Below, piece by piece: positions 5,040 through 43,453 of a stretch of DNA of 64,000 nucleotides. The DNA comes from Marsupella aquatica (taxonomy: Eukaryota; Plantae; Marchantiophyta): NCBI GenBank assembly GCA_973895155.1, contig OZ316892.1, positions 12,154,238 to 12,218,237 of the forward strand, read 5' to 3'. The notes beneath the pieces were generated by a model. The model had not been told where the DNA came from. It saw nothing but the letters and a program-made list of their open reading frames with translations, and did no database searches. Both the position numbers and the translations under genes were made by a program. Position 1 is the first letter of the stretch. Every line of letters begins with the position of its first letter.

Positions 5040-8000
5040 CAGCATCAATGACCCCATTTTCTGTCATTGTATGGAATTTATGACACAACACACAAATGAG
5101 CCAATGAGGAACTGCATCCCTCCAAACAGAGCCTTTCCATTGTTTAGGGTTTAGGTTTACACTCTAAACTCTAAACACCTCTACCCCTAGCCCTGGCCAG
5201 TTGGGTCATTTTAACCTATTTCCTCAATGACAGCATGAGGGACTCCTCTAATGACCCCATTTTGCGTGATTTGGTACTCCCATATCATAATCACAATGAC
5301 ATTATAGGAGGTCATTATTTGACATTTCTGACGTAGAATTGTTCACAAATGGCCCAATGAAGCACAAGTACCTCCAAAAAGAGAACCCCCATATCCCAAA
5401 GTGCAGGTTTATGCCACAACTAATGGATGGAGAATAGTATACAGTAGAGTGTACTGCACCCGGAGGCAGGTTCCCAGCTCTATGTAGTACCACATTTATG
5501 ACTCCACAAGGGACCAATGTAATGACCACAAGTCTGGTCATTTGACCTATATGACATCCTATATGACCGTTTCAATGACCCTATTTGTAGTCATTGGCAT
5601 TTATGACACAACTTTGTTCCAAAATGACCTAATAAAGATTACACTACCTCCCAGAGTGCCCCGTCACAATTTATTTGCAAAATATCCCCAAAATATCATA
5701 TCCCCCATCCAAACACCATCACAAACATGACATAGTTAAATAGAAGGACCACAACCTTCCATTGGTGTTGCGCTACCTCTTGGAGAGAGAAAACAAATGG
5801 CTCGATTTGCCTTTGCAAATGATGGTATTAATCCTTGGTGACACTTTTGGCAAATCACCTCAAAGTTGTACGACTTGGGAATGATTTCCCCAAGGTTGCA
5901 TCATGCCTTAAGTAAACATGAAAACATGTGTCCAAAATGTTCATGTAACTAACAACTAGTGGTTGGACAATGATGAGTATAGTGTCCCGCACCTAGTGGA
6001 GGGGTTACCACCTTCATGTAGGGCCCCATGGCGGGCCTCATGGCACATTGGGGCCCACCCAAAGTTCCTAGACCTAAAAGGGTCATTTCTACTGGTACAT
6101 AATGACATCATGAGGGACCTGTCTAATGACCTCATATGCAGTCATTTTGTACAAATGACATCCAAAATGACTCCCAAAATGACCCTTAGTGTAGTCATTG
6201 GCACTAATGACACAACATTACTCCAAAATAACCCAATGAAGATTACAACACCTACTCACAATGCCCCGACACTATTCATATGCAAAATGGAGTATCCCCA
6301 TCAAAACATCAACACAAAAATCACACACTTACATAGAAGGACAACAACCTTCCATTGATTGGTGACATTGCTTTACTTCTTGGAGAGACAAAACAAAAGG
6401 CTCAATTTGCCATTGATAATGATGGTATTCAACCACGGTGACACTTTTGGCAAATCACTCCAAATCTGTATGACTTGGGAGTGATTTCCCCAAGGTTCTA
6501 TCATGCTTTAAGTAAACGCAAAAAGACGGCTCCAAAGTGTTCATGGCACAACTAGTGGTTGGACAATGATGATTATAGTGTCCCGCACCTAGTGGAGAGG
6601 TTGCCACCTTCATGCAAGGCCCCATGGCAGTCTAGGGCCCACTTCCAATCCTTAGCACCAAACTGGTCATTTATGTTGGTCCATAATGACACTATGAGGG
6701 ACCTCTATAATGACCACATATGCAGTCATTTGGTCCAAATGACCTGCAATATGACTGCCAAAATGACCCTTACTATTGTCATTGGCTTTAATGAACACCA
6801 TTACTCGAATATGACCTAGTGAAGATTACACTACCTGTTGGAGTGCCCCCTCGCATTTCCTTTGCAATGGAATAGAATATTCCCCACCCAAACACTGGCA
6901 TAGATATGACACAGTTAAATAGAAGGACAACAACCTTCCCCTAGTTTTGCCCTACCTCTTGGAGAACAAGAAAACAACTATTATTTCACATGGTGAGACT
7001 TTTGGCAAATCACTCCAAAGCCGTATGACTTGGGAGTGATTTCCCCAAAGTTTCATCATGCCTTAGGTAAATGCAAAAATATGATTCAACATTAATTATG
7101 GTGCAACTAATGGTTGAAGAATAGTAAATATAATATCCCGCACCTAGTAGAGGGGTTTCCAGCCCCATGTGGGGCCACATGGCACTCTAGGGCCCACCTC
7201 CAGCACCTAGCCTCAAACTGGTCATTTATGTTTGTCTTCAATGACTCCACGAAGGACCCCCTCAAATAACAACAAATCCCGTCATTTGACTTATATGACA
7301 TTCCATATGACGGTTTCAATGGTCAACCCTATTTGTAATCATTGGTATTTATGACATCATGTCATTGTTCACAAATGACCCAATGAAGGCCCTAGTACCG
7401 GGCCTAGTACCTCCAAAGAGAGCCCCCAATAGATTCCTTGCAAGGTTGGAATATTCCTCTTTCCTAAACCCGCACCCACACGATACAGGGAAGCACGACT
7501 CCCCTGCCCATTCCATTGGTGCAGCACCACCTCTTGGAGAACCACAAAACAACCCTAAACCCCAAAGGTGCATCATGCCTTAAGTAAACACAAAAACATG
7601 TGTCCAAAGTGTTTATGTCGCAACTAGTGGTTGGACAATGATGAGTATAGTGTCCCGCACCTAGTGGAGGGGTTCTCACCTCTATGTGGGGCCCCATGGC
7701 ACTCTAGGGCCCACCTCCAACCCCTAGCCCCAAAATGGTCATTTGTGCTTTTCCTTAATGACTGCATGAGGGACCCCTCAAATGACAATAATTCAGGTCA
7801 TTCCGCTTATATGACATGCAATGTGACCATTTTAATGACCTTTGTTGTAGTAATTGGCATTTATGACGGGCAATTGCTCACATATGACCCAATAAAGGCC
7901 CTAGTACCTCCAAAGAGAGCCAGCTTTAGATTCCTTGCAAGGTTGGAATATTCCTATACCCTAATCCCGCACCCACACCATGCGGAGAAGCACCACTCCC

Positions 8001-9985
8001 CTGCCCATTCCATTGGTGCAACACTACCTCTTGGAGAACCAAAAAATAGGTTTTATTTGCCTTTGGATGTGATGGTATACATCCATGGTTGCACTTTTGG
8101 CAAATCACTCCAAAGTCGTACGACTTGGGAGTGATTTCCCCAAAGGTGCATCATGCCTCAAGTAAACGCAAAAACATGTGTCCAAAGTGTTTATGTCGCA
8201 ACTAGTGGTTGGACAATGATGAATATAGTGTCCCGCACCCAGTGGAGGGGTTCTCACCTCTATGTGGGGCCCCATGGCACTCTAGGGCCCACCTCAAGCC
8301 CCTAGCCCCAAACTGGTCATTTGTGCTTTTCCTTAATGACTGCATGAGGGACCCCTAAAATGACCACATATCCAGTCATTTGACTGATATGACTCTCCAT
8401 ATGACATTTTTAATGACCCTACTTTTAGTCATTGGCATTTATGACGGGCCATTGCTCACATATGACCCAATAAAGGCCCTAGTACCTCCAAAGAGAGCCA
8501 GCTTTAGATTCCTTGCAAGGTTGGAATATTCCTATACCCTAATCCCACACCCACACCATGCAGAGAAGCAGGACTCCCCTACCCATTCCATTGGTGCAGC
8601 ACTACCTCTTGGAGAACCAAAAATATGTTTTATTTGCCTTTGGATGTGATGGTATACATCCATGGTTGAACTTTTGGCACGACTTGGGAGTGATTTCCCC
8701 AAAGGTGCAACATGCCTCAAGTAAACGCAAAAACACGTGTCCAAAGTGTTTATGTCACAACTAGTGGTTGGACAATGATGAGTATAGTGTCCCGCACCTA
8801 GTGGAGGGGTTCACCTCTATGTGGGGCCCCATGGCACTCTAGGGCCCACCTCAAGCCCCTAGCCCCAAACTGGTCATTTGTGCTTTTCCTTTTAATGACT
8901 GCATAAGGGACCCCTCAAATGACCACAAATCCAATCATTAGACTGATATGACTCTCCATATGACAGTTTTAATGACCCTACTTTTAGTCATTGGCATTTA
9001 TGACGGGCCATTGCTCACATATGACCCAATAAAGGCCCTAGTACCTCCAACTAGAGCCAGCTTTAGATTCCTTGCAAGATTGGAATATTCCTATACCCTA
9101 ATCCCGCACCCACACCATACTGAGAAACACGACTCCCCTGCCCATTCCATTGGTGTAGCACTACCTCTTGGAGAACCAAAAAACAACTTTTATTTGCCTT
9201 TGGATGTGATGGTATGCATACATGGTGACACTTTTGGCAAATCACTCCGAAGTCATACGACTTGGGAGTGATTTCCCCAAAGGTGCATCATGCCTGAAGT
9301 AAGCGCAAAAACATGTGTCCAAAGTGTTTATGTCGCAACTAGTGGTTGGACAATGATGAGTATAGTGTCCCGCACCTAGTGGAGGGGTTCTCACCTCTAT
9401 GTGGGGCCCCATGGCACTCTAGGGCCCACCTCAAGCCCCCAGCCCCAAACTGGTCATTTGTGCTTGTGTTTAATGACTGCATGAGGGACCACACAAATAA
9501 CCACAAGTCCAGTCACTTGACTTATATGACAGTCCATATGACAAATTTAATGACCCTACTTGTAGTCATTGGTATTTGTAATGCAAATGTTTTTAGAAAT
9601 GACCCAATAAAGATTACACAAGCTCCTTGAATGCCCCATCACTATTTATTTGCAAATTAAAATATTCCCCATCCAAACACCGGCACAAACATGACACAAT
9701 TACAACAAAGGATGACAACCTTCCATTGGTATTGCCCTACTTCTTGGAGAGACAAAAAGGTTTCATTTGCCTTTGGATACGGTAGTATGCGCGCATCTAT
9801 ATATGGTGACACTTATGGAAAATCACTCCAAAGGTGTATGACTTGGGAGTGATTTCCCCAAAGCTAGGTGCATCATGCCTAAAGTAAATGCAAGACATGT
9901 GTTCAAATTGCTAATGCCCCAACCAGTGGGAGGACAATGATGAGTATTGTGTCCCGCACTTAGTGGAAGGGTTATCAACTATATC
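5040..9985. repeat. ~580-bp tandem repeat array (8-9 units) inside a CACTA subterminal region
   Basis: Anchor CAACTAGTGGTTGGACAATGATGAGTATAGTGTCCCGCACCTAGTGGAGG recurs at ~5953, 6549, 7104, 7621, 8199, 8758, 9336, 9920 (degenerate at ~5417); units are rich in AATGAC/GTCATT. Confidence 0.9.
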
Positions 9986-10073
9986 AATGACTCTACAATT
10001 ATGACCGGTGTCTGGAATGACTATTGAGTATTTTAATCTTCATATCTCTTGGGTTCTTTAATGACTCTATAAG

Positions 10074-10500
10074 TAGTCATTTATGCAATAAGTCCATAAT
10101 GACTATATGTTATTGTAAATATTGATATATCATGATTTTTAGATTGACCCTATATTTAGTCATTTATGCAACAAGTCCATAATGACAGTATATTGTTGTA
10201 AACACCGATATATCCTAATTTCAAGTTTGACTCTAGAGTTAGTCATTTATGAGAGAAGTCCATAATGACGGTATGTTCTTGTAAACACTGATATGTCCTA
10301 ATTTCAAGATTGACCCTAGAGTTAGTCATTTATGAGAGAAGTCCATAATGACGGTATGTTCTTGTAAACACTGATATGTCCTAATTTCAAGATTGACCCT
10401 AGAGTTAGTCATTTATGGGAGAAGTCCATAATGACAATATGTTGTTGTAAACATTGATATATTCTCATTTTCAGATTGACCCTATATTTTGTCATTTAAC
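10074..10500. repeat. 83-bp tandem repeat (~5 copies), CACTA subterminal repeats
   Basis: TAGTCATTTATG....AAGTCCATAATGAC at 10074, 10157, 10240, 10323, 10406; each unit has an inverted GTCATT...AATGAC pair. Confidence 0.9.
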
Positions 10501-10865
10501 ACCGTTGGTTAAAATGACGGTAATACATTTTTTGTCATTTATCACCATTGTCCAAAATGACTCAAATAGATTTTTGGTCATTTCAATCATTGTCCAGAGT
10601 GACTATAATGTTGTTAAACATTGATTTATCATTGTTGTTATTAATTGCGTCATTTAAGACATGTGTCTAAATTGACCATTTAGGAAAATTGGGTCATTTT
10701 GGTCACATCAGTCATTACAGACATTATACAAAATGACGCAAAAGTTAACATTTTGTCATTTCAGTCCATTGGTCATTGTGGACAGTCATTCCCCTGTCAT
10801 TCTTTTTGTGTCATTAAAAATTTTGGTCATTTATTCATCTCCGTCATTGGGTGATTGGTCATAAA

Positions 10866-14150: not shown

Positions 14151-14909
14151 CTCGGTGAGGATTTTGGAAGAGCAATCAAGGGGTTAACACGTGTATTCAA
14201 ACCTCCAAAACCCCCTACCACCCTTCGTCCTCGAAATCTGGTCGCACGCGCAGAAAATACTCATGGCAAAATGTACCCCTCGACACCAAACGCAAGACAT
14301 CTCACTTGGGTTTTGACAAAATCAGGATCTGATTTCAGATTTGGAAACTAGACTCCGAGGCGGTGAAAATCGATATAAGAAGCACCCAAAATGAGGAAAG
14401 AACAAGGGAGAAACAAATTGGTAAAGATGACAGATTTTTTTCAATTGCCTTAGCCAATTTCGAATCAATTTTTCAAAGAGAAAAAAATGGTACCTTGTCA
14501 ACAACGAATGTTGATGAATTGCACTCAGTGCTGTCACCAAGTCCAACAAGGTAATTGATTTCTCTTAGATCAATGATTTCACTAATTCTAGAAATTCTTT
14601 TTTCCAAAGTGGCTTGGTAAAATTTCCAAATTAAATAAATACATTATCCAACAACCTTAAATGAAGTTTCCAAAACTTGGAACTGGAATTTCTAGAACAC
14701 TCTTTCAAGTTTCCTAAACACCAATTGAAATTTCCAAATCCATGTAAAATACATTTTTGGCGTACGAATTTGGTGGAGAATAGTCATATGAGTAATGTCA
14801 CATTTTCATTGTCACCCACTAACGGGAACCATACAGAAGTCCATAACAATTGTTTACTTATAATAGACCTCCCCTCAATATTCCAAGTCTCCAAATTTTT
14901 AAATAACGA

Positions 14910-15961
14910 TCATTGAATGTGTGTTGCTACAAAACATATTTGAGCAAGTAAGTCTACTTCTTGATCAAACTTTCTATCTCGGTTGCAAGCGTCTTTAGGA
15001 TACAAGTTTCTAAACTTATAAGTAAGGTCCCTAGTTTTTAGGACTTCCCAAACAAATTGTCGCTTATTTTGTAAATATGGGCCGGAATAACCATCTCCAA
15101 GTAGACCTTTAGCAATTGAATTGATGTCACGGTCACTCATATCCTGCACCGGTGGCAAACTTTGCACGGTATGCTTCACTTCCTAGGAAATCTCGTCTGC
15201 TGAGTGATCAAGGACAGTGAAATTATCGACGATGCCAGCAACGCGGTGCCCCCAGGCTTGAGTGAGTCTTGCAAAGATATCACAATGCCTCCTTTGGGCT
15301 TCACCCTTCTTGTAGGCGGACCATTTTGGGTAGTTAACATTCAGAAAGTGTCTTACATCAAAAGCATTGTGCATTCTTTGAAGAAGTGGAAGCAATATCT
15401 CCATCAGAAAAGTGTCGCCTCCCATGTTGTGAACAAACAGAACTGGAAACAACGTGTTAACATTGGATTCGCGAAACACTTCAGAGGAGAGTCATCGATG
15501 AGAACAGTATTTGTCGAACCATATCTATTGCCAAAGCGATCCCAAACAGTTTGGATTTCCTTGAGAAGTATGTTTGCCTTCCCATCCGTAATATCTGACC
15601 TCAAAAAGCCAATGTCAAACATTTCTTCTTGGGTGAATACAAACTTGAACTGCTTTCGTTCAGCATCGTTGAAAACAAGATCCATCATTTCATTTGTTCT
15701 CGGCCTTCCCGCGCAAGTCCAAATTGCGACATCGTAATACCTGAAAATCACTTGTAAAAATTTGTGAAGACCTGGACGCTCCACATACATAAATGTGTTC
15801 CCGCCCCGTCTTCCCCTGTGAACGCCCCTCACAGATGTGAGCCTCCAAAATGGTCCGGAGCTTTTACTCTTTACGGAATTGAAACAAACCTTATTAAGGT
15901 AAAAAATCAAGAGCTTTCGCTTGATCTCTGAGTGGAGTTTGGGAACAAACTCTGCAAACAT
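14910..15961 (-). pseudogene. FCP1/SCP (NIF)-like HAD phosphatase-domain protein, disrupted
   Basis: KLLIFYLNK (degenerate DLD/DLN motif), ERPGLHKFL, YDVAIWT, LLKEIQTVW, TNTVLIDDSPLKC; frameshift near 15470 and in-frame TAG at 15183-15185. Confidence 0.75.
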
Positions 15962-16062
15962 AAAATAATCAAATCCGGATGGTTAGTCATTGGAACAGTC
16001 TTGACCAAAGACCATTTGAAGTCAAGTCAGTCCTTGAAATCAAATACCCCGTCTATCACCCT

Positions 16063-17447
16063 CTACACGCGTCTCGTGCAGAAATCACTGTATTGCGGAG
16101 GAAAGCTCAATCTATTCCTGAATAGACTTAAAATGATTTCTCTCCTCTCCAAATCTATGTCCTCTCCTGTGAAATCAAAAGGAAGGTCCAAACTACGGTA
16201 GTTTGCAAACTTCATAACTAACACACCACAATTATAGTAATCAGTTTGTCTTGGGATGTCCTTGGGACTATGTTTTGGCCATAGAGTAGCTAAGACTTGC
16301 TTGTGACTTCTGCTTTGAATTTCATCCTCGACATATCTGGCTAAGTTTTCAAGAACCTCTGGCCTATTGTTATGCAGAGAATCGAGATATTCTAAATACT
16401 TGTGTTCCATGTCAATCACAACTAACGCCCAATGATCGCCACCTTCGTGAATGGGGACGAATATTCGATGACAATCAATTAAGAAAAATATTTCAGTCGT
16501 GAAGTCCAAGCCTCCACGGATCGGTAAGAGTAGCCATTCGACGTCAGTGGAGTATAGAACCAACTGTCAAACACATGGCACTTCAGAAGCTCCCTGTCGG
16601 GATGTTCATTCCTCTCCACTATGAGACTTAAGTAGGCACTTAGAATATCGGAACTTATCCAATTTCTAGGACTCAAGCACCTCATCTGTCCACGAGTTAT
16701 TAGGCACCCATTAGTCCTGACTAGAACCGCATCCTGATCCAACAGATCACTGAGGCAATTGTCAATCCTCGTTTTGTTATCCATTGGATCCGGAGACGGG
16801 AGAGGACATTTGTTTATGTTTAGAGCTTTATGACTTGAGACAAGAGAGAGGAAATTGGCACCTGCCTCATTGGTTGCCTCCGCACGATCGACTCGCCTCT
16901 CTGACACCTCAGGAAGATTCACTATGAGAGAAAATGAGTTATCATTCTCTCTTGTTACTTCAGCGCTACGAGAGTCAATATTGTCATCGCATTGAAATTC
17001 AATCGGAGTGTGATCTTTTCCCACAATCCCAATCTCCTCCACAACAATCTCTTTTAAGGATCCACAATCCACCACCCCCTTCTCGACATCCTTGAGTGTA
17101 GTTTTTGCCTCACAATCATCAAAAACTGGGCCACTTTGAAGAACTGAAGCATCAACCAAAAGAGATTGCTCAACACCTCTGTTGCACTCTAACCCTAGAG
17201 GGTCAAATGAATTTTGAGGATCTACACGATACGTGTGTAGGGAGACATCATCCACAACATCTTCCAAAGTTTTGTTGAATGCAATCAACCTCGTGCCCGC
17301 CTGTAAGTTTTCAGAATTATCTGCCAAGTTACCATAACCTCCTTCAGCCATTAGAAGAGGAAATCCTTTGCGACTTGCAATTGGAACGACTGATGGACCA
17401 ATTCTCATCTCCCCAATGGAACTTAGAAACTTTTCCTCCACTTCCAC
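16063..17447 (-). pseudogene. Ulp1/SENP family C48 SUMO protease domain, frameshifted
   Basis: CLSPRNWISSDILSAY, CHVFDSWFY, IFVPIHEGGDHWALVVID, YLDSL, IPRQTDYYNCGV: His, Asp, Gln and Cys catalytic residues present; frameshift near 16500. Confidence 0.9.
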
Positions 17448-17477
17448 CCCGGTGTAATGTAAAACTGTACCGACAAT

Positions 17478-18374
17478 CTAATAATGATGGCCCTCTTTTG
17501 CTCCACTAGCATTGGAGTTTTGAGTCGAACTCCCTTCAAGGCCAGGAGGTTTCCACAATGATTTGGCAAACTGTGCAACTGGAACTAACAATTTAAGATT
17601 CTCTGCATAAGCTGTGAGGTCATAGACATCCTCACGGTCAGAGCAGAATGAAAAACACTCACGCTCAAGCATCAATGCATTCTTCAGTACCTGCCCTCTT
17701 GTGAAAAAATCCAGGACAATTTCCTCCCTCAAAGAAAATGCATGAATAAAACTCTGTAGGATGCGATTGGGCTTAATATTCAATGTGAATGGTCGTCCAG
17801 TCGTCAATTTGAAAGGAACAAGGCCTTCAAGTCGTGAGATCAATGTGTCCCTTTTTTCTCCTGAATATCTTCCTTCAAAATATCGGAATAATCCTCTCGA
17901 CTTGGCTTGATTGTCTCCTCCAGGTCGGACTCCTCCAACACAAAGTGTCCGGTAAAATCCTTGAAATGCTTTTCCCAATCAGGAACCCAATCTTGGGAGA
18001 CGCCAAGGAAAAGAACCATGTCCGCATCGCCTCTCATGTGTTGCGAAGGAGCATTAACCAAATAACTCCTCATGAACAAACCATATTCAAGGTGCGCATT
18101 ATAGTTCTCCGGGAGATCTCGAACAGCTTCAATTATTCTTGCAAGAATAATACCAAGACGAACAAAAAAAACAACTGTTACCAGATCATTTGTTGGGATA
18201 TTCACGACGATCTTCAAGAAGTTCAAGATTTTGGACTGCGTCCAAACCGGTTGTATGGGTCAAATCAACAATCGCTAGAGATGCCAATATTGACTCCTTG
18301 CAGCTAGCCGAATCAAAAGGAGGATCAGCATACGCGAGCAGATTTCCAATATAGAAAACTTGGTAAGGATCCAT
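17478..18374 (-). pseudogene. Degenerate beta-class amino (N6A/N4C) DNA methyltransferase-like domain
   Basis: IKPNRILQSFIHAFSLREEIVLDFFTRGQVLKNALMLERECFSFCSD matches the motif X-I-II pattern KP..L...I...S..GD.VLDPF.G.G....A..L.R..IG.E/D; upstream candidate motif IV LAYADPPF (or LAIVDLTH); split over three frames. Confidence 0.55.
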
Positions 18375-21300
18375 CCTTGCGCGGAGATGGCCGCCAACCT
18401 CTTTTGATGAATATTTCTCAACCTATTTTTCAGTGGCTCCGACATCTCTGCTTTTAATGACACCTTCACAAGGCTCTTGAAATATCCAGTGTCCACCATT
18501 GCACAACAACGATCCAATTCCTCATCTGTGAAATTATATTGTTGAACTACATCACCCCAAGTTGATCCTTGCGAGAAAACCCCTTCGTACTTCTCCCGAT
18601 AAAATCGAAGTATTGCCCCCTTAAGTTTGTCAATATACTTTGCTTTTCTTGCCAATTCTAACATATATGGCGGGAAGATCAGTCAAAGCATGTTTCTTTT
18701 TCATCAAAAGCGCCTCCCCCGAATTCACTTTGTGGAGGATTTCCAAGATGTCGGATTCTACGGCATCCTCAAAAACCCGGAATGTTGTCCTTGTCAACTG
18801 TTTTGCTTCTTTCGATTCTCCAGTCATTTGTCCGGTTGAATCCACAAGATTACCCTTGAGCCAATTATTGCAAACCCCTCTCCATAAAGAGTAGAGCTTC
18901 TGGGGAGCAAACAAAATCCAATTGTACTCGCTGATGCTATTCACCTTTAACGTAACTTTCGCAAGTGTTTCATACTCCTGGGAGGAAAGACCAAACAACT
19001 CAAAGTTAGTCAGCTCAAAGTTTTGAATCCCAAAATACTGGAAAGGCTCTACACGACTCTCGCGTAGAAAGGAGAGAAGGACAGAGTGTCTAAATTTTGT
19101 TCACAACTCTCATGGAGAACCAACCTGAAATTCTGGAGATTTCCAACCCGATGGAAGTGGACGAGCTGGTCGCCCCATATCATTGTATTGCATTCTTGCA
19201 TGTTTCACTTGGTCAATAAATGGAGATGAAAACCAATGTGCCTCCGCCTGAAGGTTGTTCGCGTGTGAAATTTCTACAAGAACTTTCACCGGAGTTGACC
19301 CTTTGAGAATTTGCGCTCGACAATATTTGAGCAAATTGGCTGTTTGCATGAGAGATGGTTGGGTCTTTGAACTTCGGATAATTTTCTTGGCGGCCATTGT
19401 GGAATGTTGACCACTGATGGCAAAGAACTTGAATTCCGCAAGCTTCTTGGTGTCAATATCCTTCCCGCAAGGTCAATTAAACTTGGTACTCCGTCGATCA
19501 TCTTGTAAGGAACCAAATCTGCAGGTAAAGGTTCTTGCCCTGCATTTGTCATCATCAGTTGCACAAGATGGTTGACATGCTCCTCATTGAGGAGTCTCTC
19601 ATTCATCTTTGCAGGAGGGGGATGGATGTTTTCAACCGGGACAGAAAAAAATTTGGATATCCTGAAACAATACCAAGACTTATTCAACTCCAATGTTTTT
19701 TTTGCAATCTCCAGACGAGCACGGTCGACAACTAGCTTTGCGGAACTAGGGTTCTCGTCAATATCCACATCTTCCTGATTTTTCTTTGCTTTCTTGGGCT
19801 TGCGAATGACAGCTTGAGAGGTGATGACAACCTTCTTCTCAATGTTTGGGGCCTTCTTCTCCACGGCTCTGACCATGGGAGCTTTCACAACAATTTCAGC
19901 CAACTCTGTGGTCGTTCCCCTTTGCTTAGGAGGCTTTGCCCTTGATTCCACAACTACTGATTCAACATCAAGTTTTGCTTTTTTCTTTCCCTTTGGTGAA
20001 GGATCTTTTACGACTCCCTTTTGCTTCAGCGTCCTGATCTCTGATTTGACCTTTTCAACTTTCTTCCTGACCGACGCAGATTTCTGTCCAATGCGAGACT
20101 TTTGAGACGGTTTCTCCTCCTGAGGTTTTGTTGGTGAAGCGACTTTCTTTGCATTGCTTGTTTTTCGTATTTTGTCCTTGATTCCTTGCACTTCCTTGAC
20201 AACTTGAATTCTCTTTTGGGAAGACGTTGCCTTTTCTTGTTTATCAACCGGAGATACGTTTTTTCCACCTTTCACTTGAGGCACGACTTCGCGCTGGTCA
20301 GAAACAAGAACTCTCTTTTGAGATGGTTTCTTGTCTTCTTTTTGTTCTTCCCGTTGAACCTTCTTGCGGTCTGTTTTTGCCGCAGGCGACTCATCTGCTT
20401 GATCAACAACTTTCACTCTCTTCCGAGGTAGTTTAGCTTCTTCTTTTATTTTCTCAAAATCAACCTTCTTCCGGCCTAGTTTCCCTGATGGTGATTTTTC
20501 GTCCACTGCTTTTTTCTTCCCACTGGGTGTGGATGACTCTGACACAACACCAGCTTTCCCCTTCCTAGGTGAAACTCCCTTTGAAGTCTTTGCGTATCGC
20601 TTCTCTGTTGGAGGCTTTGCTGGGGGGATGACCTCATTTTGTTGAATTTCCCCACTCTCAACATCATTGTTAATTGGTTCAACTCCACCTTCTAAACTTG
20701 TTGACTCTGACTCATTCTCTGACCCCGCCCGATTCTGAAAAGTCTTCTTGCTCTCTTCTTGGACACTTCCCTCCTCTCCGTCATCCTCATTTTCTGACTC
20801 ATAGACTGATATCGTTTCATGGGACTTTCTCTCTCCAGAGGCGGACAAGTCATCATCGGAGGAGTCATCCTTGTCCTTTCCCTCCCCATTCATCATTGTC
20901 AATCTCTTTTCCACCAGCTTCTTTCTTCCTGGGCGTACCAAGTCTTGGATTACTGGATGCCCTCAAATCCATTCCTCCACCTTTGTCTCACTAAAGTGTT
21001 TCATGAACACAACATTCGGAGAAATAGTCATCTTTCTCCTCCAGTCATCGTCTGGGATCTTCATCCGCATTATATGATCCACCTCTCATGTCCGAGAGAT
21101 AAAATATTTTGACTGCTTCATGACATAGGAGACCCGTCCGAGCCCCATAATTATTTCATCAGCCGTAAAGATCCGATCAGGTGAGAGCCATCTATCCGCC
21201 AAGGATCAAAGAAACCACATGAGACAACATTTGTGTCCTGGTTGTAAGGTTCAAGACAATGTGCTGAGCAAAACCCATGAAGTGGAGCAACCATCTGCTT

Positions 21301-21501
21301 GAAATTCCAAGAACTCTCAAACTCCAATGTCAGCAGAAGAGATGGGTTGTCCTTTGGGGACGCAAATCTCGTACAGTCTACGAGAGTGCCAAAACTCACA
21401 AAATTTCTTCGTCCATTTTCTGTTTTAACTCCCCTCACAATCAAACGGGAGTTGCCTTTGACTGGTTGCAATTCAAAAGACCATGAATTCACAATCACCA
21501 A
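18275..21501 (-). pseudogene. Lys/Glu-rich N-terminus, ParB/Srx-like domain and helical region of the large accessory protein
   Basis: FSVPVENIHPPP..MNERLLNEEHVNHLVQLM; after a frameshift at ~19462, KFFAISGQHSTMAA (cf. DGQHR/GERR box) and LVEISHANNLQAE (cf. ENLQRE); probable short intron ~19039-19124. Confidence 0.6.
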
Positions 21502-21989
21502 AATATTCTCAAGTTTTGCAACCGTTGGAGTTTCAATCCGAAGCCTGTCAGAACGGAAATAAACAGAGTGAACTCCTAGAAGACAAGGAGAAATATGTCA
21601 AACATCTGCACGACACTCGCGTAGAAAATAAAGTGAGCCCACAAACTGTTGCTTCATTATAAACAAAATGATGTGAAAACATCCTTTACAAAATGGCCTC
21701 TTTGGCGTGTAAACGGTCTGGCAAAAAATGACTATCAGAACTTTGGAGATAGTCTTATGAGCCATTTGAGCTCATCATGATTCAGAGTCAAAACATTGTC
21801 CAGATTTAAGAAAACAATCTAATCCGCTAGAAACATAAGAGTTCCCTAACTCAAAGTATGCGCACACATGTGGCCATGAAGGCAACAATTTTTCTTTTCC
21901 AATTCAATCCATCACACTTTGGTATCTAATTGTCTTTCCCTCTCTCGGCCATCGGCCAGCTCCTGTCGCAGGTCATGAACTTGACGATC

Positions 21990-22640
21990 TCAAAACTTCT
22001 CCATCTCAAGAGAAGCTTTCATGGACTTTGCCGCTACGTCGCAAGTAGTCAAATGCTGGATCTGTGCCCATTGATACTTTGCAAACATCTGCTCCCGTTC
22101 GTATTCTATTGCTTCCTTTTCATCCTCCAACGCTTTTTGGAGAATGGAACTCTCCATCAAACTCATATCAAATGCATAAATACTTTTTTGTAACAATCCC
22201 TCAATCTTCTCAAAATTGTCCTTGCGATGAGCGCCTTCCTCTAGAAAAGTTGAACGAACAAAGTCACATGAACAATGTTTTGATTCCATATGGTACATAT
22301 GAACGAGGATTCTACAAGACAGTCGCGTTGAAATCCATTATCTCCAAGATTGGAGAATCGGTTCTACGCGAGACTCGCGTAGAACTAAATAGGAAATTCT
22401 AAATTCTAACATAATGGCTCTCAAATAGAGACTATGGGTCGATGAAAGAGACCCATTCTACACGACTCTTGTGTAGAGCAGACTCAAGTTTAGCACAATC
22501 CATTGAAAACAGAGAAATGTAGGTCAAAATTACCTTTGAGCTTCCTCAATGCAGCGAGAGCAAGTAATTCGGCGTCATTTTCTGCCAAAGAAGTCGTCAT
22601 TCCCTTTGCACGTGCAAACTCCTCCACGATAATGTCAAGG
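21990..22640 (-). pseudogene. Upstream exon(s) of unknown coiled-coil-like protein
   Basis: ORF 21990-22298 plus a short exon ending ..ALRKLK|GTAATT near 22533. Confidence 0.35.
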
Positions 22641-22811
22641 ACCGATGAGTTGAGAAAAAACAAATAGAAAACATAAATGATCCAAGGTCCAAGGTCCGAG
22701 GTCCTTTTATAGTCCGAGACAAGCGTGAAAGAGCGTATCGTCCGAGGGGAGCGTGAAAGAGCGTATCATCCAAAGCGAGCGTGAAATGGCGTGAAACAAT
22801 CTAAGGGCCAA

Positions 22812-22935
22812 GCGTGAGAGAGAGAGAGAGAGCATGAGAGAAAGAAAGAGAGAGAGCAAGAGAGAAAGAGAGAGAGAGAGCGAGAGAGAAAGAGAGAGAG
22901 AGAGCGTGATTGAGAGAGAAAGACAATGAGAGCGA
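22812..22935. repeat. (GA)n microsatellite in the region between the divergent genes
   Basis: Long imperfect GAGAGA tract; CT-rich on the minus strand, typical of plant 5' leaders. Confidence 0.9.
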
Positions 22936-23429
22936 CAGCGAGCTGGAAAGCAACATATACCCCTTTCGCGTGGAATACTGTTGAACAATGATTGCGGTTG
23001 CTACCCGGCCGCCAAACCTGACACTCGGGATCCTGGACGTGTCACTAACATGGCAAACCACCACCCGCCGCCAAACCAATCTGCATTTATGGAAACGACT
23101 GCTCACCACACACCACGCCGCCACAAAAAAGTACTACACGACAATCTGGTAGAGTTGAATGTCTGAAATTCTTGCACCCCCACTCACTATATAACATGAC
23201 AGACCACTTTGTGCAAGTTATTTTTTGAGACCTGACTCATTCGTGCCTTCAGTCCGAGGTGGGACTGTCATTAAAGCGTGCTCTGTTGTTTCAGGTACTG
23301 CATCGGTACAGTTTCTCGTACAATTTTTCTCCTATCATTTTCAATTTTGTTTTAGTGATTGTGTCAGTATGTGAATGCATGTGCTTGAGTCTTTCCCATT
23401 GGGATGTGGTTGAACTGTATATTCAGTAG

Positions 23430-23765
23430 TAATCTCTATTGAATTTTGGACTTTTGATTGTCTACACGAGCCTCGTGTTGTTCCCTTCGTCTATGCAAAT
23501 ACAACGTTCAATAGGAAGTTCCTATAAGAAGAATACTCATTTCAAAATATCCATCTCTATATAGAAGGTTTAAGAGCCTACTAGTTGGATTCAGTCGTAA
23601 ACTGTATTGAATATTGGACTTTGGATTGTCTAACAAGCCTCGTGTTGTTCCCCTTGTCTATCCAAATACAACGTTCAATAGAAAGTTCCTCTAAGAAGAA
23701 TACTCATTTCAAAATATGCATCTCTATATGGAAGGTTTAAGAGCCTACTAGTGTGGATTCAGTCG
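23430..23765. repeat. 168-bp tandem repeat carrying the palindrome; third copy resumes at 33204
   Basis: TATTGAAT.TTGGACTTT.GATTGTCTA at ~23437, ~23605 and ~33211. Confidence 0.85.
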
Positions 23766-25063
23766 TGTGACGGGGCCAATGGTCCCAAGGAATGATTTTA
23801 AAGGGTAGTAGTGACGCATACATGTAAATACATAGATTTGTGTCAAGTTTTTTTTCTTTTGTTCTCTTACAACCTTGCCAACAATAGTTTATGCGCAATA
23901 TAGATGAGATAAGTAGTGATATTTTTTTCTAGGTCCTCTTAATTTTAGTTATCGGGCCAAGCCTCAGAGTTGGGGGGTTGGCCGCTGGCCGGTCCGGGCC
24001 AAGGCATGTGCCCTATTGCCATTCCATGCTGGAGCCGGGGGATTATCTAGCTTTACATTTTTATCACCAGCCCTAGTATTTGCGCATGGGGGCCGGTCGA
24101 AGGAGTTAGTGGCCAAGCACCGCATGAGGTGCCCCGGCCAGCAACATGGACCCTAGCACAAATTAGCCTCGGCCGAAAAGAGCTGGCCATAAGGGCAAGA
24201 AGTCCCGGAGAAGGGAGCCGGCCAAGAAGGAGGCCCGGCCTTAGCTTATAGGGGCACTAAGGGGGGATTAAATTCCCCTTTCCAAGAAAGCCAGCCAAGG
24301 GCAAGAGGCCTGGGAGAAGGGAGCCGGCCAGGAAGAGCAGGAGTGGAGCCGGCCCAGGAAGGCGCAAGAAAGAGGGCACGAGGAAGGAGCTGGCCAAAAG
24401 GTGGCCCGGGCTTAGGAGGAGGGAGCATGATCATGGGGATTAAATCCCCCTTCCAAGGGGAGGCCTCGGCCATAGGGGTGCGAGCCAAAGGGGAGCCGGC
24501 CAAGGGAAGGTGGCCCGGGAGGAGGGAGACGGCCAGGAGGCTTCGTGAACGAAGGGCAGGTGGCGCCAGAGGGAGCGAGAAAAGGTGAGGGGGGAGGGGA
24601 GTAATAAACCCCCCACACCTGGAGGAGGAGAAGGTACATAGGGGGCAGTTAAGGGCCCTTGGATCCCAGGGGGATCCCCAAACCCGGGAGCATAGGGCAC
24701 CGGGCCCCAAAGTGGTGGAGGGATTGGCCATTAAGGCGCCCATAGGGACGTGCGCCAGAGGGAGCGAGAGAGGGCGTGATGGGGGGAGGGGGATAATAAA
24801 TGCCCCAACCCTAGGGAGCAGGTCCGTGGGGGAGGGGGGCAGTTAAGGTCCCAAGGGATCCCCCAAATTGGGCAGAGCAGGTGCGTAAGGAGGAATGGGG
24901 AGGGGGATTAAAATCCCCCAAACCTGGGGGAGAAGGTTCATGGGGGAGGGAGGCAGTTAAGGTCCCTGGATCCCAGGGGATTCCCCCTTTGGGCAGAGCA
25001 GGTATGCAGGGTAGGAAGGGAGGCCTTGGCCATTAGGAGCGAAACTTGGGGGGAGGAGCGGCC

Positions 25064-25070
25064 TATATAA
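25064..25070 (+). promoter_or_regulatory. Putative TATA box for the long ORF
   Basis: CCTATATAAG after a G-rich repeated region and before a pyrimidine-rich leader. Confidence 0.55.
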
Positions 25071-25233
25071 GTGCTCATTTCCAACTCTTTTTTCCCAGTT
25101 TTTTTTGCGCTCCTCACTCATTGCCGAAACTCTTTTCTCTCCTCATCGATCAACCTTCCCCTTTGTGTCATGTACTACCTCTATTTTCCTTGAGTGATTC
25201 TGAGAGCGGCCATGGAGTGAGCTGGAGTGGGGA

Positions 25234-28200
25234 TTGACAAGGACTTGGAGAGGGAACCTGATTTATTTTATCGTGGTTGGGTACGGGGGCCGCACGAGGC
25301 CAAGCTCTAGGAATTGCGAAACGGGAATCGGTCCCCAGTTGTGCTCTTCAGGGGGAGTGGGGTGGATGAGATCCCCAGACAGACCTGAGTTCACCAACGC
25401 TCGCATTAGGAGGTACAAGGCAGCCTACCGGGAGTACATCACTTTGCAGCTAGCCCGAGAAGAGGAAGAGAAATTGGCAACCAGGGCCACAATGTCAGGG
25501 ACCAATGAAGCACCCATGTCACAAAGGACTCAATGATGTTCATACCCCAAGACATTGGCCAAGCTTCTAGACGATAGCCGTGAATTGTTTGAATCCACCG
25601 TGATTATCAATTTAATGCGAGTGGACATGCGTGCTCCAATGGATAGGCATTAAAAGATTGAGGATGGGATGGACTTACGGGATGATGGATTGTACTTTGC
25701 ATGCATCAAGCGCACCCTCCCTCATGACGAATTGACTCGGTTGCTGATGTTGCACAACCAGGACCTGACATTCTACCCCATGGAGCCACCAGGGACACTC
25801 ACATTGGAAGAGCTGGCCATGTATGTGAAGGAGGCTACCTCTGTGGTACACATTTCCCTTGCATCCTTCAAGGACCCAACGCTCAGGGGTTTTGTTGGAA
25901 AGGTCCATGTGATGCCTAGACAGGAATCACTCGGCCAGTTAAGTGGGTAAAGCAGGAAGGCACCCTAGGAACACCTTAGTATAGGGACAAAACAAGGAAA
26001 ATATAAACCATTAGGGGCAACCATGGAACCCGGGCCGAGGCCGGAGGTAAGGACGCTGAGGGTGAAAACTCGATTAGGGTTAGGGCGCGTTAAGCGTCGG
26101 CGGCTAGGAAGGATCAACGGGAAGAAGGACCGGCAGAGGAGAGGGGTAAGGAGTGCTTGCAGGAGATGGTGGCTCATTTGCAAGCACGAACTAGACAGAC
26201 GACTACGGGAGGCCAACTACTGTCAGCTGCTTAGGCAAGCACTCGGGGAGAGAGTAGATACTGACGATCGACCTAAGGAGGGTATGAGCAACGTCAATCA
26301 AGCGGCACATTTCTGGGGATGCCTGTTCGAACGGGCAACTGAGTACATCAAGACTTACGAGGACGAGGAATCAGAAAGGGCAGCTCGAGAACGGTAGGAG
26401 CTCGCTCGATTGTGGGAGCTGCAGAAGACGGTTTTCTTAGGAGGCGAACTCATCAAGGACGAGTTCCTATGGACGCCTACTTCCAATCAACTCGACGATC
26501 TTCTATTTTGCAAAGACAGCGTCGTCGGCATCCGAGAGGCCATCAAGAACTGCAACGACATACACTGGGAATTAAAGGGTAGCACGGAAAGGTGGACCCA
26601 GGCAACGGTGCTAGGAGAAACCTCCACGGCAGCAGAGATGAAGAGGAAGGGAGCTGTCAACGATGAAGCCACCCCGGCAAAAAGAACGAGGTCGGCGGCA
26701 CCAAAGAAGCCAGCCGAGCAGCAGAGCAGGAGGCAGGGAGAAGCCGAAGAGGAGGAGGTCGATCCCATCAAGGCCATTCCAACCAGGGATGACACCTGGA
26801 AGGGCTGGGCGGCAACCCTACCGGTGGAGGTGCAACTACATTTTGCACGGGAGGAGGATGCATGCTTCACGGCCATGCAGACCAAGAAGTACCAAGGCTT
26901 CATGGCCGGATCCAGCTTAGAGGCCTTTGTAAGATTACCATGGCTGAAGCCGGAGGTACCGGAGTCAGACCTATTAGAATTCGTGGGGTCATGGGAACCC
27001 GAGACCAATTGCACGAGGATATATGGGAAGGATTTCTATCTTACTCCCAAGGTAATTGCCGAAGTGTTTGGCTTGCCGATAGGCAATAAGACCAAAGTTG
27101 ATACCAGGAAGACCTTGCCTGACAAGGAGTTCCGGTCGTTCCCCGGGCCATCAACGAAGAATGGCTTCTTCCGGAACACCTGCACCAACCCGCACATAGG
27201 AGAGATGATCGACTTCTTGCGGGTGACCATGCATTGTAACTTGCCGAGGGCAGAGATCGGCAAGGCACAGGTCTATCTGGCAGAAAGGCCAGACCCAAGC
27301 CGGGACTACAATGGGTACCTCCTCAACCAATTGAAGAAGATCTTAAAGGAGGAGCAACAGGTAATCGGCATGGGGAGCGTGTCGCGGCTTGGCTATCACA
27401 TGCCGCTGTTGTGCCGGTATGCCAGAGGTCAGACTTTTGCCCCGGTACTTCCCCTGCAGGTAAGGGCACCCAAGGAAGCTCCAATGCCGAGGCCGTTGGC
27501 TGAGAAGCCTCAACCACCTGTTAGCCCTACGATTGAGCAGGTGTTTAGGCCCAGGAAGGAGGACTTGCCGATGCAGCAACCAGGCATGCAGAGTCTGCTG
27601 AAACTACTGGAGAACGAAAAGAAATCGGCATCGGCAACAACAACGGCAACGGCAACAATGGAGGACACTACTACAGAGGTAGGCCTACACCGGCTCACAA
27701 GAGAAAACCCCTTTGCTGGAGACAAGGAGAGAATCAGGCCGGAATCCAAGCCCGGTGTTCGAATGTATGTGGGAATCTCAAGCTCCGAATCTGAGGCAGA
27801 ATTGCCTGAAGCTCCTACCGACGAAGAGGAGAGGGAGAAGCCGGACGGCCAAGAAGTAGAGGAGGCAGTGGAGGACTGCAGCCATGATAATTCCGGCTAT
27901 GGGTCGGACCATCACGTCCCAGGAGTAAGGACCTGTGGCCGGTTTGTCCCCACACTTCCAAGGGTAGTGCGAGGGGACCCCAACCAGCAGAGTAGCCCTG
28001 AGTCTCCCCCACCAGATGTTGCTCCCCCGAGCTTCGACGGCATAAAACAGACGGTGCAGGAATTTCAGGAGCGAATCAAGCAGGAAGAGGAGGCAGCCCT
28101 GGCTAGGGAAAAGGATTTACCAGGAGGAGATTGGCCGGAGGACATCAGGCGGCTAGCCAAAAAAGGAAGCAAACCTCTAGCCACGATTGAAGAGATCCGC

Positions 28201-29613
28201 AAGACGGCTTGGGAGCAGAGGCCGCGATGGGCGATGCCGATTACTTCTACTTACTCCACCTACGCTAAGAATAGAGCCATGGAGTATGGTGAGATGTTTG
28301 GGGAACTTGCGCTCGGCATCTTTGGAGAGGAGTTGGAGGTAGGACCCTTTTTCCATAGGGAGCAGTTGGAGAAGCACCAATTAGAAGAAGCGGTGGCTTT
28401 AGAGAGAAGCAAGAAGGACGAGGTCATTCGGCAGCTTAGGAGGATGGAAGCCGAGATTGAAGATCTAAGGGCGGCCAAGAAAGCCCAAGATGAACTACGG
28501 ATTAAACGACATGAGCTGAACATCATGCAGGGGCAGTTGGACACCGCGCAGGCTGATAATCAGAATATCAAGGATAAACTGACTCAGACGCAGGGAGAGT
28601 TGGCCGACACGATCAAAGAGAGGGAGAAGTGGAAGCAAGAGCTGAAGAATACAGAGGAGGCCCACATAACAGCCAACAGCCGGGCCATGGCGGAGACCCA
28701 AAGAAAGGAATGGGCGTTGAAGGGGGAGCTCGAGAAAATCCGCGGAGCCCTTGAGCAGAAGGAGGCCGAGTTAGGGAAATCCTATCAAGGGATTATGGCG
28801 CTGCAGTAGGAGCTTGCGTCCCTGACGGCCAGCTTCAAGGCCGACCTAAGGGAGAAGGACGAGATGCTCGAACAGACTTACGCCAAGATGAACCAGATGG
28901 AGTCTGTCATCATTGCGGAGCTCGACAAGGAGCTAAGAGCAACCCAGGAGGAGAGGACTACCTTGAAACAAGAACGGGAGGAAGCCCAGAAGGAACTAGA
29001 GGAGGCACGCAAGGACCTGGATGAGACCCAGGAGGAGTTGGAGGAAATCACGAGGAAGATGGAGAACCTCCAGCGGCGGGCCGACAACCAAACGGAGCGG
29101 CTGAAGAAACAAGCCGCAGTATTTAAGTGCTTGTCTTCATCAGGCCCAACTCCAATTGGGCCACCTGCACCAGTGCCGGAAGTAAGTGGGAAGGGGAAGG
29201 GACCAGCTGCCGAACCAGAAAAGAAGAAGAAGCGGAAACCTTCAGGGTCAAGGAGTAATCCGACTCCACAAGCCGTGGTGACCAAGGAGGTAGAACTAGC
29301 ACCATCCTCCGACATGAATACGGCAATAGATCCCGCTATCATCACAGGTGGGGGTGGTGCGGCCCAAGCCGAACTACTCAGTAATGAGGCCGGTATCCCA
29401 GATCCGCCTCTTGAGCAGGCCAGGGAGACCCAAGCCGTGGCTGAGGCCGTAACCGGTTCCCGAGCCGATGCCGACGCCGATGGTGGACCCAGTCAGGCCG
29501 ATGGAGAGTTGACTCAATCAAGGGCAGGTAATCTGTCAGAGAATGAACCTACGGCAGTGGCTGAGGAGGAAGCGTTGGGGGCGTCCATTAAGGATCCACC
29601 ACCGGTGTCGTGA
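25234..29613 (+). pseudogene. ~1460-codon ancestral ORF: plant-retroelement accessory-type domain plus long coiled coil
   Basis: Five track ORFs share one frame, separated only by stops at 25534, 25651, 25948, 25966, 26395, 28807; LLEFVGSW..TRIYGKDFYLTPKVIAEVFGLP resembles Athila/Tat extra-ORF (Transposase_32/PMD-like) domains. Confidence 0.7.
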
Positions 29614-30510
29614 CGGTGCAAGGGCGCCATTCCTTTTAGGGAGGGCGGACGTGGAGGGAGGAGGCGTGAGTGGGCAGGGCGGGCGCTGATCTCCAAGTTT
29701 AGGATTAGGATCAGGACCAGGAGCGGCCCTGACACTTAGCTTAGTGGGATTGCGGTTCCACTGGTAGGAGCAACACTTGTGCTCCTGCCTTGCTGTACAT
29801 AGGTAGATTCGGGCAAGTAGATTACTGTTAAGTAGATTAGGCTTACGATGCAAAGAATGGCGGATCCACTACCAGGATAAGTACCTGGGCAGCGGGGAGC
29901 TCAGGGCCTCTTCTTTAGCAAGTTTTTAGTTTGCACCAGCCGGGCTGGGATCAAGTAGTACGAGAAGCTCTCGGTTAGTCATACAGTGACCCTTGTGTAT
30001 ATTCATGTTTCCTCATGCCTAAGAGCTGAATAGAGTTGGCCTCACGGCTTAGTTCGCAGAACTTGTGTATGAGATGTACTGTTTGTATGGCAAGTGCATG
30101 GTATGACTCAGTCAGAATGAGTCATTTTGCTATTTGTGTATCGCATTAACTTGTGTGAAGAGTGCCCACATCAACCAAAAGGAAGGAAAGTAAGCAGGGG
30201 AGTGAGAGTTGGATGTGTCGAGCTGAGAGAGGTCTTAGCGGCTTAACCAAGCCTATTGGGGATCATTCCGGCGGCGGAATCCAAACATACCTAACAAGAC
30301 GGAGGGGAAGACAGGGGAAGGCCTAGATTAGGCCGGCTACGTATCTCATGACCCGATGAAGGATCTGTCCAGTATATGTGTGTAAAATGTTAATAGTAGT
30401 AGTAGAAGGTTAGCAGCGTCCCATGCCGCTAAGCCGCGGAAACGGCCTCGCCAAGCGCGAAACCTGCGGGAATCGGCTTGAGCTGGGGGGTTTCTTGGGT
30501 TTAGGGAGCC

Positions 30511-31884
30511 ATGGGACGCACCACAGTCCATCAACGGATACTCAGTTGGGTGCAATCAAGTATAATTATAGGGGAACACTTGGCCATTGCATTGGACATC
30601 AAGCAGCACCCGGAGCACACATACGGATGGTGGGTGTTTGGTTTGAGGAAAACGCTGACCGCAGATCCCAAAGGCCACAAGCCTGGAGGAATCATCCATT
30701 TTCTTGGGTCATTTCTCTTGAACAGGATGGAGGGGCTCATCTCAGTTCCCGAACCAGAGGAAGGAGTATTGCCCTCCTTCCCAACCGTCTTACGAAAGAT
30801 TGCCACCACCGTCGTGCAGAATTTGACCACAGATTCCACCAAGGAGCTGGCCACTGATGTCGTGGTGGAGGGGGCACCGGACGAAGAGGAGGATATGGAT
30901 GAAGAGTTTACCATGTAGTGGTTGAAGTCCTTGATTGGTAATCCCGAGGAGCCCATTGTGTATGACATTCCAGAGGTATACTTGGCGGAATTGCAAGAGT
31001 ACCGTGATGCTATTAACGAGGGCTGGCAATTGTGCAAAGCCATGAAGTGGGCTCTGAGTAGGGCCAATGCTAAGGTGGCCACCTTGCAAGTTGGGCACAA
31101 GGCGCTGAAGGAGGTCATACTGTCCAAGGAGGAGACTATTCAAGAGAGGAGTAGGTTGTTGAAGCAAGCCTATGACCAAGTTGGCCACTTGCAAGGAGCC
31201 CTGTCCACCAAGGCCAAGGAGGCCGAGGAAGCAGTTGCTTTGAGGAAGGAGCTGGTAACGATGAAGCAAGCCGAAAAGGGCGTGGATGCCCTCAAAAAGC
31301 AGATTTCAAAGTTGCGTGGCCAGGTGAGTGCTTATGAGACAAGGGCCAAGAGAGCCGACGCCCTGAGTCTAGGGAAGAGGAAGAAGCCCTGTCCACCCGG
31401 TGTTACTCCCGTTGCTTTGCCAGAGATGTTGGCCAAGGCCATTGATGCAGTGGTCATCGAAGTAACCAAGACTTATGGGCCAATGTTGGAAGCGGCCAAA
31501 AAGGACAAGGAGAAGTGCAAGAGCCTGGAGAATAAGTTGAAGTCAACCCGCAAAGCACTAAGGAACGCAACGTCTGGCCAGGGAACCACGGGTATGCCAC
31601 CTAGGTCGGTGACCCCGGGAACTCCCATGGCCATGGGCCAAGTCTTGCCACTGGAATTGCAGGGTGATGAGGAGACAACGTTGTGGAAGGACACCATCGG
31701 TCATGGATACATTAGGGCTTGGCAGGCTTTGGCGGCATTACAGAAGCAAGGAACCTCGGGCCAAACGTTGGGAAGGACCACCCCGGGGAGGAGTAGGGGA
31801 GGAGGTGTTGCATCTACCCAGGGGGGCAGTGATGACTCTCGGGGATGGAGCCTTGGCACCGTAAGTGAGTCCGAGGAGGATTAG
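30511..31884 (+). pseudogene. Second coiled-coil ORF of the 9.4-kb insertion
   Basis: ORFs 30511-30918 and 30922-31884 are in frame, separated by one TAG; heptad-rich. Confidence 0.6.
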
Positions 31885-43451: not shown

Positions 43452-43453
43452 CT

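Follow-up and report, generated by a model that had tools for sequence, protein, structure and literature searches.

The locus and its transposon

The window, a stretch of 64,000 nucleotides from the liverwort Marsupella aquatica (contig OZ316892.1, positions 12,154,238 to 12,218,237 of the forward strand), is repeat-rich eukaryotic DNA with Copia and CACTA elements and tandem arrays. Positions 17478-18374 (minus strand) are the middle part, broken by frameshifts, of a long gene on that strand, called here the accessory gene, in which the domains follow the order ParB-like, helical, beta-class amino-methyltransferase fold, Ulp1 and NIF. This region comprises three pieces in two frames, the first reading ...LLAYADPPF...LAIVDLTH, the second ...WTQSKILNFL...HLEYGLF...MVLFLGVS... 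and the third ...IKPNRILQSFIHAFS...VLDFFTRGQVLKNALMLERECF. A first-pass annotation had singled out the strings DPPF, AIVDLTH and DFFTRGQ; all are present on the minus strand, though not in one ORF, since ADPPF and AIVDLTH both lie in the frame 18422-18189 and DFFTRGQ in the frame 17978-17481. From its sequence and the fold of relatives the methyltransferase part was assigned to 17560-18400, in three reading frames. Alignment to relatives placed on the same strand the motif III strand at about 18360, a linker with DPPF at about 18320, motif IV (AIVDLTH) at about 18270-18255 and motifs X-I-II (KP, DFFTRGQ, REC) at 17780-17650.

The remaining domains of the gene, all on the minus strand, surround this fold. 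The profile and model of the relatives delimit a ParB/sulfiredoxin-fold domain at 19125-19730, where SGQHS replaces G-x-x-R. It is preceded by a low-complexity arm rich in Lys and Glu and by an N-terminal domain with a weak match (19730-21600; the N-terminal domain of relatives matches 21085-20966 with a profile E of 0.002) and followed by a helical domain (18400-18977) that is a candidate DNA-binding part. Just 3' of the ParB domain a 147-nt GT-AG intron with one palindrome inside (18978-19124) was predicted by tblastn placement against relatives. Many gene-caller products of relatives end at this position after the ParB domain, and together with the intron prediction this indicates that the gene is eukaryotic and not a bacterial contaminant. 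On the other side an acidic linker and a Ulp1/C48 SUMO-protease domain (16066-17477, E 3e-19) continue the frame of the methyltransferase fold, with the His-Asp-Cys motifs of the protease retained (HWALVVID, QTDYYNCG). A NIF/FCP1-like phosphatase domain (15407-15982, E 2.3e-11), which is an exon or a separate gene, reads YLNKV at its first DxDxT motif in the window copy. Seven relatives with a full C-terminus carry a small end domain, which a profile search did not detect in the window, and no Ulp1. This indicates that the SUMO protease and NIF effectors are not core to the family. Of note, a segment before Ulp1 (KTRIDNCLSDLLDQD, 16730-16790, minus strand) resembles the beginning of the transposase reading frame (KTRIEPRMECLSDLLDWND, 34041-34100, plus strand), in DNA too, and a DNA stretch similar to these segments lies within the CACTA gene at 55895-55927. 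Upstream of the accessory gene, a short ORF of coiled-coil-like character (21990-22337, minus strand) has three flanking palindromes and no Pfam match.

The window copy of the gene is broken. Placement by tblastn against relatives gave frame changes near 19461 (in the ParB domain), 18663 (in the helical domain), 18395, 18252 and 17860, and a stop at 17478-17480 ends the frame of the methyltransferase fold. When other copies in public sequencing runs were compared with the window, the changes listed (for indels the best 12 of 82, for substitutions the best 40 of 769) included indels at the 19461, 18663, 18395 and 18252 sites, as well as copies without the stop at 17478-17480 and without a frameshift at 16484. 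One contig of run X3 has five additional bases at 18252, which bring DLTH into frame with the downstream piece.

The accessory gene lies in the left arm of a transposon (14569-23765). Its edge at 14568/14569 against another repeat is sharp, as judged from depth, loose ends and contigs starting at 14569, and in public contigs 14569-22500 appears as a multi-copy repeat bounded on the left by the same sharp edge. Across this whole stretch, numerous variant contigs with 80-99% identity are present in runs X1-X4, as for dispersed multiple copies. A 9.4-kb foreign insertion (23766-33198) with TG...CA ends and a 5-bp duplication, AGTCG, splits a 167-bp repeat of the element, which is found at 23421-23766 and picks up again at 33199 (94.5% over 55 nt). 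One contig of run X4 begins exactly at 33199, and depth in the middle of the insertion is more than 100-fold higher. This insertion is GC-rich without an LTR pair. Its middle, about 25600-30670, consists of a repeat in very high copy number, with long ORFs of coiled-coil type that match nothing in Pfam. Beyond it, the right arm begins with promoter-side palindromes, the transposase and the start of the terminal tandem repeats (33199-36946), is interrupted by a 6.9-kb Copia LTR retrotransposon (36947-43797, minus strand; 345-bp LTRs 98.6% alike, 5-bp duplication TGCAT) and continues with tandem repeats and three palindromes (43798-44360). With both insertions set aside the element measures about 13.5 kb and is multi-copy. 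We link the two arms on the basis of the 5-bp duplication, the split repeat and the depth, which for long contigs within run X2 is alike over the accessory gene (111-163) and the transposase (117-144). The 15 joints listed, out of 191, did not include the empty-site joint 23765/33199. Searches found neither terminal inverted repeats nor a target duplication of the element, and neither its right end nor a continuation of the left neighbour repeat; the ends are apparently truncated or hidden.

The transposase gene (33400-36700, plus strand) encodes a DDE-type DUF7869 protein (E 3e-33), is broken in the window copy and stands head-to-head with the accessory gene at a distance of about 2.4 kb. DUF7869 has near-invariant conserved acids at D118/D121, D266 and E305/D306/D308 of the query. 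We call it Sola1-like because we take DUF7869 to be the Sola1 transposase and because of the precedent in Ectocarpus discussed below; a literature search on DUF7869 found no papers. A 218-aa ORF with two repeats (33372-34028, plus strand) lies directly upstream of the transposase and has no Pfam match. By eye its repeats resemble the CACTA-associated DUF8039. Elsewhere in the window, a CACTA element (49075-62330) carries Transposase_21, DUF4218 and DUF4216 with a twin-BRCT ORF inside. On both sides of it lie 2.1-kb inverted arms, 84% alike, and each arm codes for an NSD-like PHD-finger protein. Positions 5300-10600 hold a tandem array of units of about 578 bp followed by 83-bp and 43-bp arrays, with strong CpG and CHG depletion.

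The same gene pair is found in a second liverwort. In Riccia sorocarpa a member of the accessory family, R1sor_013425, adjoins R1sor_013424, a DUF7869 gene. Among the transposase matches listed (195-622 aa), one of the three Riccia family members has such an adjacent tag. Chance adjacency for three tries is about 1%, based on 55 Riccia tags of 120 listed transposase rows and about 26,800 tags, and is higher if that list is incomplete. In all, the gene at 17478-18374 is very probably an accessory gene of a DUF7869 transposon. A location in a plant transposon had been proposed by the first-pass annotation and agrees with the DUF7869 partner, the multi-copy element and the Riccia pair; the partner itself, the ParB domain and the palindromes had escaped that annotation.

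Relatives and predicted fold

To collect relatives, one frame was read through with X at stops and searched with HMMER against 1.84 billion representatives. This gave a family of 72 proteins at E <=0.001, to which a profile search added three. Among the 30 relatives looked up, those assigned to a species were all from liverworts (three from Riccia sorocarpa and three from Calypogeia fissa). Six long open relatives (P0002, P0005, P0058, P0073, P0077 and P0078) span the whole domain, which indicates that the broken pieces of the window join in intact genes. The first-pass annotation had suggested a profile search against PF01555. For the 166-aa piece of the window the match is weak (E 0.018, under the curated cut-off), and for relatives it is firm (down to E 3.3e-7); all 30 Atlas clusters drawn for this piece were PF01555, at 0.91. 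The same piece retrieved none of 524 candidates in a word-based search for longer proteins and only three chance matches in a sequence search of the PDB, and a PHROGs search gave nothing useful.

Structure prediction was more informative. In the AlphaFold model of P0073, most of residues 50-750 have a pLDDT above 80, and the top Foldseek matches of the model are M.RsrI, CcrM, PvuII and MboIIA. Residues 463-740 match CcrM with a VIA Z of 17.2 (rmsd 3.7, 226 aligned), followed by M.BceJIV (16.3), MboIIA and RsrI (15.9), the rotifer N4CMT (15.6) and PvuII (15.2). The domain of P0002 folded alone (mean pLDDT 87.7) matches CcrM with Z 16.6 and ranks its matches as P0073 does, the score falling to 4.9 past the amino-methyltransferase group among 48,161 chains. 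The window pieces align to both modelled relatives. On these models the methyltransferase domain is predicted to be a permuted Rossmann fold in the beta-class order IV-VIII, TRD, X-I-II. The first-pass annotation had proposed a prokaryote-type amino-methyltransferase fold with motif IV before X-I-II; the CcrM matches agree with this fold and the models of P0073 and P0002 with this order. It had also named two findings that would count against it, namely no Rossmann methyltransferase match or fragments that cannot be joined in intact copies. The structural matches supply the one and the long open relatives the other.

The upstream part of the protein resembles another fold. Residues 55-240 of P0073 match ParB/Srx-fold proteins only (Z 5.3-7.6), with PadC at 7.6, KorB at 7.0, SerK at 6.6 and Pnob8 ParB at 6.5 over 201 residues; these scores, all below 8, were taken from a 1009-residue model. 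Foldseek also matched Noc over 279 columns (E 1.5e-3), and profile searches with the ParB-like domain gave no PDB match. The best viral model matches span the ParB and methylase domains together (699-726 columns), a pattern in line with descent from a phage protein that fused ParB and methylase. Fusions of this kind are known in phages (PMC4738411). In the viral contigs searched, neither domain had a relative and the palindrome did not occur. As a side observation, the ParB-plus-helical part of P0073 (residues 50-460) falls with fungal DUF3723 Atlas clusters at 0.91, and DUF3723 may be a ParB-like relative.

Motifs of the two canonical active sites

We then compared the catalytic motifs of the family with those of prokaryotic methylases. 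Motif IV was assigned from the strand order of the models and from whole-domain structural matches. In the window it reads DLTH, which departs from the catalytic pattern [DNS]-P-P-[YFW]. The 14 relatives covering this motif, which include one near-duplicate pair, all keep the Asp and all lack PP[Y/F]; 11 of them have an Arg at +3. Their motifs are DFAR (four), DFTR (three), DFSR (two), DLLR, DLAR, DLTS, DFSQ and DFSW. As controls we used prokaryotic methylases related to the X-I-II region, 80 of which were kept out of 196 from a metagenome scan that yielded prokaryotic methylases only. Motif IV was readable at 68 loci, the other 12 lying nearly all at contig ends, and every readable locus keeps DPP[F/Y] (65) or DLPY (3). 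Since the controls were chosen by their motif I pattern, only the motif IV and motif II counts are fair comparisons. The first-pass annotation had offered two candidates for motif IV. AIVDLTH aligns to motif IV of the family. DPPF was rejected as it aligns to a variable linker between the motif III and motif IV strands, which in relatives reads TLDPPQ, TVDPPK, TMKPEV or CEPSL.

The other motifs of the cofactor side are also unusual. Motif I reads DFFSGG in 11 of 16 relatives, one residue shorter than DFFAGSG and with a gap against M.RsrI. The window has DFFTRGQ instead, likewise without F-x-G-x-G, where the TR may be specific to this copy or subfamily. The motif II acid is missing from its aligned position in all 16 relatives, which have S, A, C or V there, versus D or E in 64 of 67 parsable controls. 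The position was set by sequence alignment, and in nine of the 16 relatives a D or E stands one residue beyond it. A profile-profile comparison with the controls aligned X-I-II (E 1.7e-12), and its global mode mis-registered motif IV. Other features are kept in the family, with D/N in motif III in 10 of 12 relatives, the motif X Lys in 16 of 16, DFF-G, and an almost invariant R-E-C. The conservation of the motif III D/N, the motif X Lys and DFF-G suggests that the cofactor pocket may survive.

A similar situation is found in the ParB-like domain. G-x-x-R is the consensus nucleotide-binding motif of ParB/Noc CTPases. The corresponding motif of the family is G-Q-H-S, and the arginine is absent from all 40 rows covering it (Ser in 38, Leu in two). 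Both canonical active sites are therefore altered family-wide with their folds kept. For the methylase, the first-pass annotation had asked whether FxGxG and DPPY/F are conserved in intact copies, and among intact relatives neither is. It had also considered that the odd motifs arose by decay. The same non-canonical motifs recur in relatives with open frames at 20-59% identity, which makes the loss of the catalytic motifs a property of the family and does not support decay of the window copy as its cause. The catalytic death that it regarded as possible now appears probable, on the complete lack of PP[Y/F], and the protein is probably not a conventional N6A/N4C DNA methylase.

Palindromes, proposed role and known systems

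Screening of the window revealed a 23-bp imperfect palindrome, core CTACACGAG-N-CTCGTGTAG, with 17 copies within 16061-44302. They start at 16061, 17220, 19047, 21604, 22310, 22362, 22456, 23132, 23460, 33234, 33341, 35380, 36723, 36838, 43933, 44091 and 44280. Searching for the core with up to three mismatches gave 12 matches versus 0.01 expected. A weight matrix found 17 sites scoring at least 11 inside the 13.5-kb element, which is 21% of the window, and no score above 5.1 in the other 50.5 kb. This matrix was built from sites in the same element, where tandem duplicates leave about 13 independent sites. In letter-shuffled windows the best scores ranged from 5 to 17.0, and five of 20 exceeded 12.5. 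The 15 sites scoring at least 19 are consequently secure and the two weakest (12.6 and 11.0) are not. Eight palindromes lie between the two genes, five in the right-end repeats, one in the transposase gene and three within the accessory gene (in the predicted intron, over the Ulp1 stop and in the linker).

ParB binds parS and Noc binds NBS, and such palindromes are bound as dimers. We lean towards a reading in which the gene, head-to-head with the transposase, encodes a likely dead methylase that would bind the 23-bp palindromes of its own element with its ParB-like domain. By analogy with ParB/parS and Noc/NBS, the ParB-plus-helical part would bind the palindrome as a dimer, a step we regard as somewhat better than even, and the dead methylase fold would serve as a DNA-binding or dimer scaffold. 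In the window subfamily the fused SUMO protease and CTD-type phosphatase could then act on local chromatin, so that the element would stay expressed in the manner of VANDAL/VANC. This anti-silencing outcome, also drawn from analogy, is tentative and somewhat below even odds. CpG observed/expected ratios are 0.65-0.69 for the element, 0.30 for the CACTA element and 0.63-0.76 for Copia copies; the element is thus depleted like the Copia copies and its CpG content does not support an escape from methylation. In its most far-reaching form, which is speculative and rather doubtful, liverwort Sola1-like transposons would have domesticated a phage ParB-methylase and rebuilt both active sites into a parS-like self-recognition system. 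The protein would load at the palindromes and relieve silencing by delivering the SUMO protease and the CTD-type phosphatase, as a second, independently evolved anti-silencing system of land plants, possibly with a new D-F-x-R chemistry.

Three other explanations have to be weighed against this reading. The palindromes could be bound by the transposase or used as synapsis sites, with a dead methylase helping through protein contacts or non-specific DNA clamping. The five sites in the right-end repeats and the one inside the transposase gene fit such a role, as does a 2026 preprint reporting that a plant transposase itself activates cognate copies. However, the eight sites between the genes and the three in the accessory gene are far from either end, and in Plavaka elements of red algae, whose transposase is a different one, inverted-repeat arrays are reported beside the ParB-like genes. 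We consider this explanation unlikely. Slightly less probable still is an active SAM-dependent enzyme with the site rebuilt as D-F/L-x-R in place of DPPY and with DNA, RNA or a chromatin protein as its substrate. The persistence of the motif IV Asp, the motif III D/N, the motif X Lys, DFF-G and R-E-C across 20-59% identity, the well-folded model and the 4mC/6mA activity guessed in print for the algal relatives all speak for it. Yet the base-holding aromatic and the prolines that all readable controls keep are missing from every relative covering them, motif I lacks one residue, no acid stands at the aligned motif II position, and inactive amino-methyltransferase domains are known from DIRS1 elements and METTL14 (PMC4738411).

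Finally, the gene could descend from a captured phage ParB-methylase, long without function and now carried along as neutral cargo, as the many breaks of the window copy and the alteration of both active sites might suggest. Against this, distant relatives retain frames of 500-1000 aa that are open and show the same altered motifs, the family occurs in two liverwort genera, and the intron position is shared and the fold kept. All this is unexpected without selection, which makes neutral cargo very improbable.

Two papers of 2025 put forward the conjecture that algal transposons use accessory genes for ParB plus methylase to bind their own DNA and methylate it, and the liverwort family carries this design into land plants. 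If the methylase is a pseudo-enzyme, as argued here, the proposed mechanism shifts from writing a mark to recognising self. The palindrome provides a concrete candidate binding site, which makes it possible to test how silencing is evaded by transposons other than VANDAL.

The rotifer and Marchantia N4C enzymes, which the first-pass annotation named as known eukaryotic cases, are more distant than these algal accessory genes. The Ectocarpus element Sola1-1_Ec32 carries a 1104-aa gene for ParB plus an N4C/N6A methylase opposite its transposase, and the paper refers to comparable proteins of red and green algae, for the latter with reference to Iyer 2011 (PMC12477816). The element is from a brown alga, its methylase is predicted to be active, and the accessible part of the paper does not mention lost motifs, palindromes, Ulp1 or NIF; it has 282-bp TIRs and a 4-bp TSD, neither of which was found for the window element (PMC12477816). 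In the red alga Bostrychia, the Plavaka PAG2/PAG3 genes are likewise transposon-borne with PF01555 and ParB-like domains, and inverted repeats beside the ParB gene were proposed as binding sites, comparable to the palindromes here (10.1101/2025.02.11.637652). They differ in having two genes (methylase plus SET; ParB plus 2OG oxygenase), an EnSpm/Plavaka transposase and tandem arrays instead of dispersed single palindromes (10.1101/2025.02.11.637652).

With CcrM, M.RsrI, M.PvuII, M.MboIIA, the rotifer N4CMT and the phage ParB-methylase fusions the family has in common the fold, the order IV...X-I-II and, for the phage proteins, ParB before methylase. Beta-class enzymes keep [DS]PP[YF] and FxGxG, whereas the liverwort family has D-F/L-x-R, DFFSGG and no aligned motif II acid. 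Marchantia DN4MT1 has TSPPY and, according to the rotifer paper, no extra domains. In Arabidopsis the accessory protein VANC of VANDAL transposons also binds short motifs of its own element, located in introns, intergenic and terminal regions and often in tandem repeats (PMC5735166). Its binding and demethylation were demonstrated, on non-palindromic motifs of 8-9 bp (PMC5735166), whereas for the liverwort protein we infer both, and we claim no homology. DIRS1 retrotransposons also carry an amino-methyltransferase domain, inactive in all copies; it has a Group-2 (PCIF1-like) fold and not the beta-class one, belongs to a retrotransposon polyprotein and lacks ParB (PMC4738411). Our literature search returned neither a land-plant description nor a statement that such domains are dead, and supplements or subscription papers may contain one. 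ParB-methylase accessory genes are thus already published for algal transposons, as putatively active enzymes, and what is new here is a version from liverworts that appears to be catalytically dead and comes with dispersed palindromes.
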